A stretch of DNA of 904 nucleotides from NCBI RefSeq assembly GCF_003334335.1, contig NZ_QOWQ01000140.1; one strand, 5' to 3'. Numbering within the stretch: the stretch's first letter is position 1; the number at the start of each line of letters is the position of its first letter. Shown here piece by piece: positions 1 through 904 of this stretch. This DNA comes from Escherichia coli. GTDB taxonomy: Bacteria; Pseudomonadota; Gammaproteobacteria; Enterobacterales; Enterobacteriaceae. Under the pieces are notes generated by a model. The model did not search any database. It was not told where the DNA came from and worked only from the letters and a program-made list of their open reading frames with translations. Made by a program: the position numbers and the translations under genes.

Positions 1-28
1 TGTAGTGGTCAAGTAATATTGGCCACGG
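1..28. repeat. Right terminal inverted repeat (IRR) of the IS3-family element; may extend to about 36 bp
   Basis: The window starts with TGTAGTGGTCAAGTAATATTGGCCACGG. IS3-family ends begin 5'-TG, and the TGnAGTGG…TGGCCAC pattern resembles IS911 inverted repeats from memory. The transposase stop codon (11..9) lies inside it, as is common in this family. The partner repeat is not in the window, so the extent cannot be confirmed. Confidence 0.55.
7..12 (-). promoter_or_regulatory. Outward-facing -35-like hexamer TTGACC inside the terminal repeat (candidate junction or hybrid promoter half-site)
   Basis: The reverse complement of 7..12 (ggtcaa) is TTGACC, one mismatch from the sigma70 -35 consensus TTGACA, six bases from the element tip and pointing out of the element. 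In IS911 and relatives a -35 in the right repeat pairs with a -10 in the left repeat when the ends are joined in the circular intermediate. No partner -10 is visible here. Confidence 0.4.
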
Positions 29-904
29 TTTTACAGTAAAAATGGTATCTGTTCTCTGACTCTTCCGGCGTCAGCCCACCGTTATAATGGTGAGGTCTGA
101 CGCTGTTGTAGTAGTTCAATATGTAATCATTAATTTGCTGCCGGGCCTCGTCCTTGCCTGCGTAACCATTCGTTGGCACCCATTCTGTTTTCAGACTGCG
201 GAAGAAGCGTTCCATGGGGCTGTTATCCCAGCAGTTTCCCCGCCGACTGACGCTTTGATTTATTCTGCAACGCCAGAGAAGTTGTTGATATTTAAGGCCT
301 GTATACTGGCTTCCCTGGTCGCTATGGAACACGACATCCCGGGGTTGGCCACGCGTCTCATAGGCCATCCGCAGGGCACTGCTTATCAGTGCGGTATCGG
401 CATGCGCTGACAGACTCCAGCCGATAACCCTGCGGGCAAAAAGATCCATAACAACCGCCAGATAGCACCAGCGATTTCCTGCCCAGAGATACGTAATATC
501 TCCACACCATACCCGGTCTGGCTCCGGTACTGCGAACTGACGCTCAAGCAGATTCGGCAGGCTGGTATGCTCCTGACGGGCATTTTTATACTGATGTTTT
601 CCGGGCTGACAACTGCTCAGGTTCAGATATTTCATCAGACGTCCGGCACGGTAACGGCTCATCGGGACGCCGTTTTGAGTCAGCATTTCAGCCAGAGTGC
701 GCGCGCCCGCAGAGCCCCGACTTTGGTTCCACGCCCGGCGTATTTCGCTGCACAACCTGACTCGTGCCGGATTAACCGTATCGCGTCGTTTTCGCCAGTA
801 CCGGTAACTGCTGCGGTGTATTTCCAGAGCAGAACACAGGCTGACAACCGTGTGGCTGTCACTTAGTCTGGCGGCTATCGTGAACCGTTCAGCGAGTCGG
901 ACAT
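9..904 (-). CDS. IS3-family transposase OrfB (C-terminal part of the OrfAB fusion), 5'-partial; DDE/rve integrase catalytic domain preceded by an HTH-like region
   Basis: Continuous open frame on the minus strand from 904 to the TGA stop at 11..9. Conserved motifs read directly from the translation: VWCGDITY (D at 498..500), HSDQGSQY (D at 318..320), [15 protein letters not shown] (E at 210..212, K at +7), and upstream HRSSYRYW (about 795..818). The TTG at 755..753 given by the ORF track is only the first start-like codon; the frame is open upstream to the window edge. Confidence 0.9.
875..904 (-). CDS. 3' end of orfA (IS3-family transposition regulator OrfA), C-terminal fragment only
   Basis: Minus-strand codons from 904 read ATG TCC GAC TCG CTG AAC GGT TCA CGA TAG, giving MSDSLNGSR then stop, which closely resembles the C-terminus of IS911 OrfA as I recall it (…MSDSLNSSR). 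OrfB is in the -1 frame relative to this frame. Confidence 0.6.

Follow-up and report, generated by a model that had tools for sequence, protein, structure and literature searches.

The analysed stretch of 904 bp, hereafter called the window, is very probably the right-hand part of a 1258-bp, IS911-like insertion sequence (IS) of the IS3 family, for which the best name is an isoform of ISCfr6, with ISEc31 as the next closest named relative; we give this reading a probability of about 93%. The element itself is an already known, catalogued, and very abundant insertion sequence. In the numbering of the element, window position 1 corresponds to IS 1258 and window position 904 to IS 355, and these limits (IS 355-1258) were taken from full copies whose corresponding part is identical to the window. 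The window comprises the IRR (right terminal inverted repeat), orfB from seven codons past the slippery site onward, which is almost all of it, and the final 30 nt of orfA. Most of orfA, the A6G slippery site, the promoter/upstream region, the IRL, and everything past position 904 are absent from it. The features recognized in the window are as follows.

1..26, minus strand: IRR, with the outer tip ...CA at window 1 and a minus-strand reading that ends in ...GTGGCCAATATTACTTGACCACTACA
7..12, minus strand: TTGACC hexamer, a candidate -35 element for a promoter that would arise at the junction of the abutted ends in a circle
9..902, minus strand: orfB, the -1 frame of the transposase, cut at its 5′ end by the window edge and with its stop codon within the IRR
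66..524, minus strand: integrase/RNase H-like catalytic core (Pfam rve at OrfB residues 127-224, rve_3 at residues 213-279)
191..189, minus strand: catalytic motif residue K238, seven residues after the glutamate (E+7)
212..210, minus strand: catalytic motif residue E231 (in SPMERFF)
300..340, minus strand: uninterrupted target of ISEc21, a seekRNA-guided element of the IS110 family, with the insertion point at window 317/318, just past the D195 codon
320..318, minus strand: catalytic motif residue D195 (in FHSDQGS)
500..498, minus strand: catalytic motif residue D135 (in WCGDITY)
597..755, minus strand: HTH_21 (PF13276), an HTH-like domain at OrfB residues 50-102
875..904, minus strand: 3′ end of orfA in the 0 frame, overlapping orfB (by translation, the last nine codons, MSDSLNGSR, and TAG)

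The original prediction had described a stop-free frame of 298 codons over positions 9-904. The frame is indeed open, but the listing of open reading frames and their translation give 297 sense codons on the minus strand from window 902 to 12, followed by a TGA at 11..9, so that its limit is at 902 instead of 904; the strand had been left unstated. It stays open up to the window edge, where bases 903-904 are part of a cut upstream codon. The plus strand of 9..904 has multiple stops throughout, and therefore the open frame is that of the minus strand and a plus-strand reading was rejected. In RefSeq, the orfB product is entered as “IS3 family transposase, programmed frameshift” (WP_085968792.1).

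The catalytic residues of OrfB are arranged as had been predicted from the sequence, namely as a DD(35)E triad with a lysine at +7. D135 and D195 are separated by 59 residues, D195 and E231 by 35, and K238 is accompanied by an arginine at E+4; thus the IS3-family signature, DD(35)E with K/R seven residues after E in an rve-type core, is present in OrfB. The profile searches suggested at that stage gave matches to both Pfam families, rve (5e-26) and HTH_21 (i-Evalue 1.5e-8), together with rve_3 (2.7e-12) and rve_2, and the NCBIfam model transpos_IS3 scored 302 bits against a curated cut-off of 160. With this score, and with motifs that align with those of IS911 OrfB, the expectation of an IS911-like DDE transposase frame of the IS3 family was confirmed. 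The open frame, the triad, and the domain matches together are far beyond what chance would produce. A phmmer comparison of OrfB with solved structures in the PDB gave no match at E <= 0.01; at E <= 10, the sole match was a weak one to a retroviral integrase core (7ouf, E 0.19), which is consistent in register and aligns D135 and D195.

Furthermore, orfB bears the mark of selection. When it was compared with its ISEc31-labelled relatives of about 92% identity, 52 out of 71 substitutions were found at third codon positions, and the codon changes were 50 synonymous and 15 non-synonymous; this excess at third positions and the synonymous majority indicate purifying selection on the orfB frame. 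The same comparison bears on two open reading frames of the opposite strand, one of 107 aa (87..410) and the other of 99 aa (567..866), either of which might be taken for an antisense gene on the plus strand. For the frame at 87..410, 41 nucleotide changes between the window and the ISEc31-like copies result in as many as 32 amino acid changes, while in the relatives that at 567..866 either is shortened by a premature stop or lacks its start or stop codon, and the substitutions fall on the wobble positions of orfB. There is hardly any chance that such a gene is a real feature; both frames were judged to be chance ORFs, as they are not conserved at the protein level in the relatives.

The organization of the whole element was read from full copies. 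In the copy at locus L001, it is 1258 bp long with the termini TGTAGTGG...CCACTACA. The comparison comprised seven full copies that match the window exactly over its whole length, and in all of them the end of the element is exactly window position 1. The IRR pairs with the IRL in L001 through an arm of 27 nt, including one base of the flank, with 78% complementarity (repeat search and manual alignment of the ends); the inverted repeats are thus imperfect, about 26 bp long, and have TG...CA ends, as is characteristic of the IS3 family. orfA occupies IS 73-384 and encodes a protein of 103 aa with an HTH. The A6G slippery heptamer (A AAA AAG) is located at IS 333-339, 16-22 nt past window position 904. 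A conceptual -1 fusion at this site gives an OrfAB of 392 aa, the length of the RefSeq “programmed frameshift” protein, although the frameshift is predicted from sequence. The IS3-family layout, orfA in the 0 frame and orfB in the -1 frame with a slippery site, is accordingly seen in the window-identical full copies, and the window itself covers the orfA tail and the overlap. The window, which starts exactly at an IS terminus, may be a repeat-bounded assembly fragment.

It follows from this organization that an intact transposase, as had been proposed for the window, is not what it contains: the enzyme is the OrfAB fusion, and about the first 96 of its 392 residues are missing from the window, as are the A6G site, the promoter region, and the IRL.

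The element is widespread. A match was found in 2278 of 5426 complete E. coli genomes, with the best place at least 99% identical in 881 records and with up to 17 places per genome. Among plasmids, 253 records are at least 99% identical, and these come from Escherichia, Enterobacter, Klebsiella, Citrobacter, Salmonella, and others. Genes annotated as “IS3 family transposase” that match the window over its full length with 100% identity are found in E. coli by the hundreds, both on chromosomes and on plasmids. In a collection of phages, there was one partial match with 94% identity, in Salmonella phage SJ1. For many of the proteins of this element in the databases, the source is a contig of about 880-1260 bp.

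Six of the seven copies compared are 1258 bp long with 0-1 mismatch (none in five, one in the sixth) and an intact frameshift fusion, while the seventh, L013, has 1263 bp. No two of the seven share a location: the sites are genes for a prophage exonuclease, for phage head-tail joining, and for a PAAR protein, besides melB, tssF, ypjA/ehaD, and, on the F plasmid, the trbD-traP region. Distinct target duplications of 3 bp flank five of the seven (ATT, ATA, GAA, TGT, and ATC), a length that falls within the short (3-5 bp) duplications of the IS3 family. Such near-identical copies of 1258 bp with different target duplications at many sites indicate that this type of element has recently transposed; it has been mobile recently and probably is so at present. 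The remaining two copies, L010 and L012, are of full length and have no 3-bp target duplication, and the flanks of L012 belong to different genes (ypjA/ehaD versus a GTPase gene). These two cases are consistent with an IS-mediated deletion or with recombination between copies.

Whether these observations extend to the very copy from which the window derives is a separate matter, since that copy might be a defective or truncated member of an active family. The window terminates inside the element, truncated copies do exist (L004, which covers window 1-623, and H97-H102), and target duplications are missing in the two copies mentioned above. The most instructive case is L013 (NZ_CP031321.1, 932974-935077): it matches the window without a single difference, yet has a length difference of 5 bp upstream and is annotated as “frameshifted”, with the defect in the 354 bp past the window. 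On the other side, six of the seven window-identical copies are of full length with the frameshift fusion intact, and all of the element visible in the window is intact as well. A defective state of this copy is therefore rather improbable, but it deserves some weight. Because a copy identical over the window can be frameshifted outside of it, the window cannot show its own copy to be functional. In consequence, the claim that it represents a recently active or still functional element holds for the element type, with six full-length copies and five with duplications among the seven, while the intactness of the individual copy cannot be deduced from the window.

The name ISCfr6 rests on proxies, namely on the published label for the copy in plasmid pP10159-4 and on the names given by PGAP. 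“ISCfr6:ISEc21” is listed among the accessory modules of pP10159-4 (NZ_MF072964) (PMC6140695). In this plasmid, the element is split by an IS110-family gene, and when the two parts were rejoined, the present element was 96.9% identical to it at the nucleotide level overall and 96.2% in the window part; the amino acid identities are 99.0% for OrfA, 97.3% for OrfB, and 97.7% for OrfAB. By this proxy, the element passes the 95% nucleotide identity that had been proposed beforehand as the mark of a known IS, both over the full length and in the window part. The PGAP names point in the same direction: a copy on a Klebsiella pneumoniae plasmid, 99.5% identical to the pP10159-4 variant, is named ISCfr6 family, and the same name, “ISCfr6 family”, is attached to a truncated copy that has 99.8% identity to the window. 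Exact copies of the window variant carry just the generic label “IS3 family transposase”.

The first lead was ISEc31, and the possibility that the element is an isoform of ISEc31 instead of ISCfr6 is supported by several facts. The first named protein match is an “IS3-like element ISEc31 family transposase” with 97% identity to OrfB. The usual range of an isoform in ISfinder is above 90% nucleotide and above 95% amino acid identity, and the genomic copies labelled ISEc31 lie inside this range: in a gap-free alignment over 1258 bp, their identity is 92.8% for nucleotides and 95.7% for OrfAB. They are collinear with the present element (compared with the PGAP-labelled copy L003) and have the same slippery site and type of inverted repeats. 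However, 90 substitutions are distributed across the element, most densely in its right-hand 350 bp, and the 92.8% identity over 1258 bp, again by proxy, is below 95%. The ISCfr6-labelled copy is clearly closer with its 96.9% and 97.7%, the fragment of 99.8% identity bears the PGAP name ISCfr6 and not ISEc31, and the ISEc31 label sits on copies of 92% identity, never on exact copies. ISEc31 was thus dropped as the best name after the comparison of whole elements, and we regard it as unlikely. An even smaller likelihood belongs to the idea of a new, uncatalogued element of the IS3 family, for which the generic PGAP name of the exact copies might speak; it is contradicted by the 96.9% identity to a copy published as ISCfr6 and by reports of ISCfr6 in E. 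coli, which comprise six intact copies in the STEC O121:H19 strain 51104 (PMC9397093) and outputs of MobileElementFinder. Of the two options originally offered, a different named member or an uncatalogued one, the former has accordingly been borne out and the latter has not. The preferred reading remains an isoform of ISCfr6.

The relationship to IS911 of Shigella dysenteriae, the experimental model of the IS3 family, is more remote, as had been anticipated. The organization is the same, including an identical ATATTAAAAAAGGCTACCGCGCTCTT frameshift region, and the IRLs of the two elements are closely alike (TGAAGTGGCACACTGAATTTGGCCACC versus TGTAGTGGCACACTAAATTTGGCCACC); the IRR also resembles the IRL of IS911. 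The OrfB proteins align by BLASTP without gaps (2e-124) and with the DDE residues, the lysine, and the surrounding motifs conserved, but their amino acid identity is 56%, and the nucleotide sequences are about 65% identical in two partial blocks (PGAP-labelled copy L002 on a S. dysenteriae plasmid), far from the 95% level. Identity as IS911 was rejected on these values. ISEc52, another IS3-family element, is as distant as IS911, its OrfB being about 56% identical from end to end, and is a different element.

The differences from the pP10159-4 copy of ISCfr6, an IS3-family element of Citrobacter freundii and Enterobacteriaceae, are unevenly distributed. The two share the length of 1258 bp, the ends, the gene layout, and the ISEc21 target site. 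There are 39 substitutions, most of which are found in IS 385-761 (window 498-874), with the others in the first ~240 bp; the right-hand ~500 bp has one substitution. This clustering, together with the nearly identical right end, suggests that the window variant would be a mosaic isoform generated by recombination among ISCfr6/ISEc31-type elements. It is much more common on plasmids than the pP10159-4 variant: with the latter as the query, 332 records show 95-99% identity and 18 show at least 99%. Since its PGAP name is generic, the window variant may have no entry of its own.

The element is also a recipient of another IS. The IS110-family gene in pP10159-4 splits it at IS 941/942 (11411/12781 of locus L009), which is equal to window 317/318, and in E. 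coli E2348/69 (NZ_LT903847.1) the match ends at window 318, adjoining ISEc21. The codons around D195 are thus a natural target of ISEc21, and the same point was used in both pP10159-4 and E2348/69. A broader proposal may tentatively be put forward, at somewhat less than even odds: the window variant could be a mosaic ISCfr6 isoform without its own entry that dominates in E. coli and is spreading there at present, also in STEC lineages with the IS-excision enhancer, and whose catalytic-core codons serve as the natural landing site of the RNA-guided IS110-family element ISEc21.

The mode of transposition may be outlined by analogy. IS911 produces OrfA and, by -1 frameshifting, OrfAB, has inverted repeats of 36 bp, and its proteins contain HTH, LZ, and DDE domains (PMC2909936); a two-step pathway through a figure-eight and a minicircle is described for IS911/IS2 in two further reports (PMC3219604, PMC3299598). 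In the present element, the layout, the slippery site, the inverted repeats, the 3-bp duplications, the DD(35)E motif with the lysine, and the selection on orfB were observed, and the remaining steps are modelled on the work on IS911 and IS2. Programmed -1 frameshifting at A AAA AAG would yield the OrfAB of 392 aa as the actual transposase, with its N-terminal HTH and leucine zipper predicted to bind the inverted repeats. The DD(35)E core would then carry out an asymmetric single-strand cleavage and transfer to form a figure-eight, which would be resolved into a circle with abutted ends, and the circle would integrate at a new site with a duplication of 3 bp (copy-out-paste-in). OrfA by itself would act as a regulator.

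Such a circle might possess a promoter at its junction. The TTGACC at window 12..7, located at the tip of the IRR, might be comparable to the -35 element of the IS911 junction promoter (pjunc). With a spacer of 3 bp between the ends, a gap of 17 nt from TTGACC reaches CACACT in the IRL, a weak candidate for the -10 element. Regarding the frameshift, the folding of the RNA on the 3′ side of the slippery heptamer does not surpass that of shuffled controls (z = -0.32), so a stimulating RNA structure is not supported by folding energy.

An Rfam search of the window gave no match. In the full element, outside of the window, the isrC family (RF01387) matches IS 69-191 (L001 4068-4190, minus strand) over the full family length with 150 bits. 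isrC is an island-encoded, Hfq-binding sRNA of Salmonella, and the match falls in the 5′ part of orfA; as it spans the whole family model, the isrC family would appear to represent a segment of this type of IS.

The significance of these results is mostly a matter of annotation: windows of this kind should be masked or labelled as an ISCfr6-type IS and not be treated as candidates for novelty, and a window that stops within an IS is no proof of a functional copy. In addition, this type of IS interrupts genes, such as tssF of the T6SS, melB, and genes for conjugation and of prophages, and thereby contributes to variation at the strain level. As a minor observation, the 33 bases at window 872-904 are 100% identical to a “transposase” remnant in the engineered E. 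coli strain BLK9.
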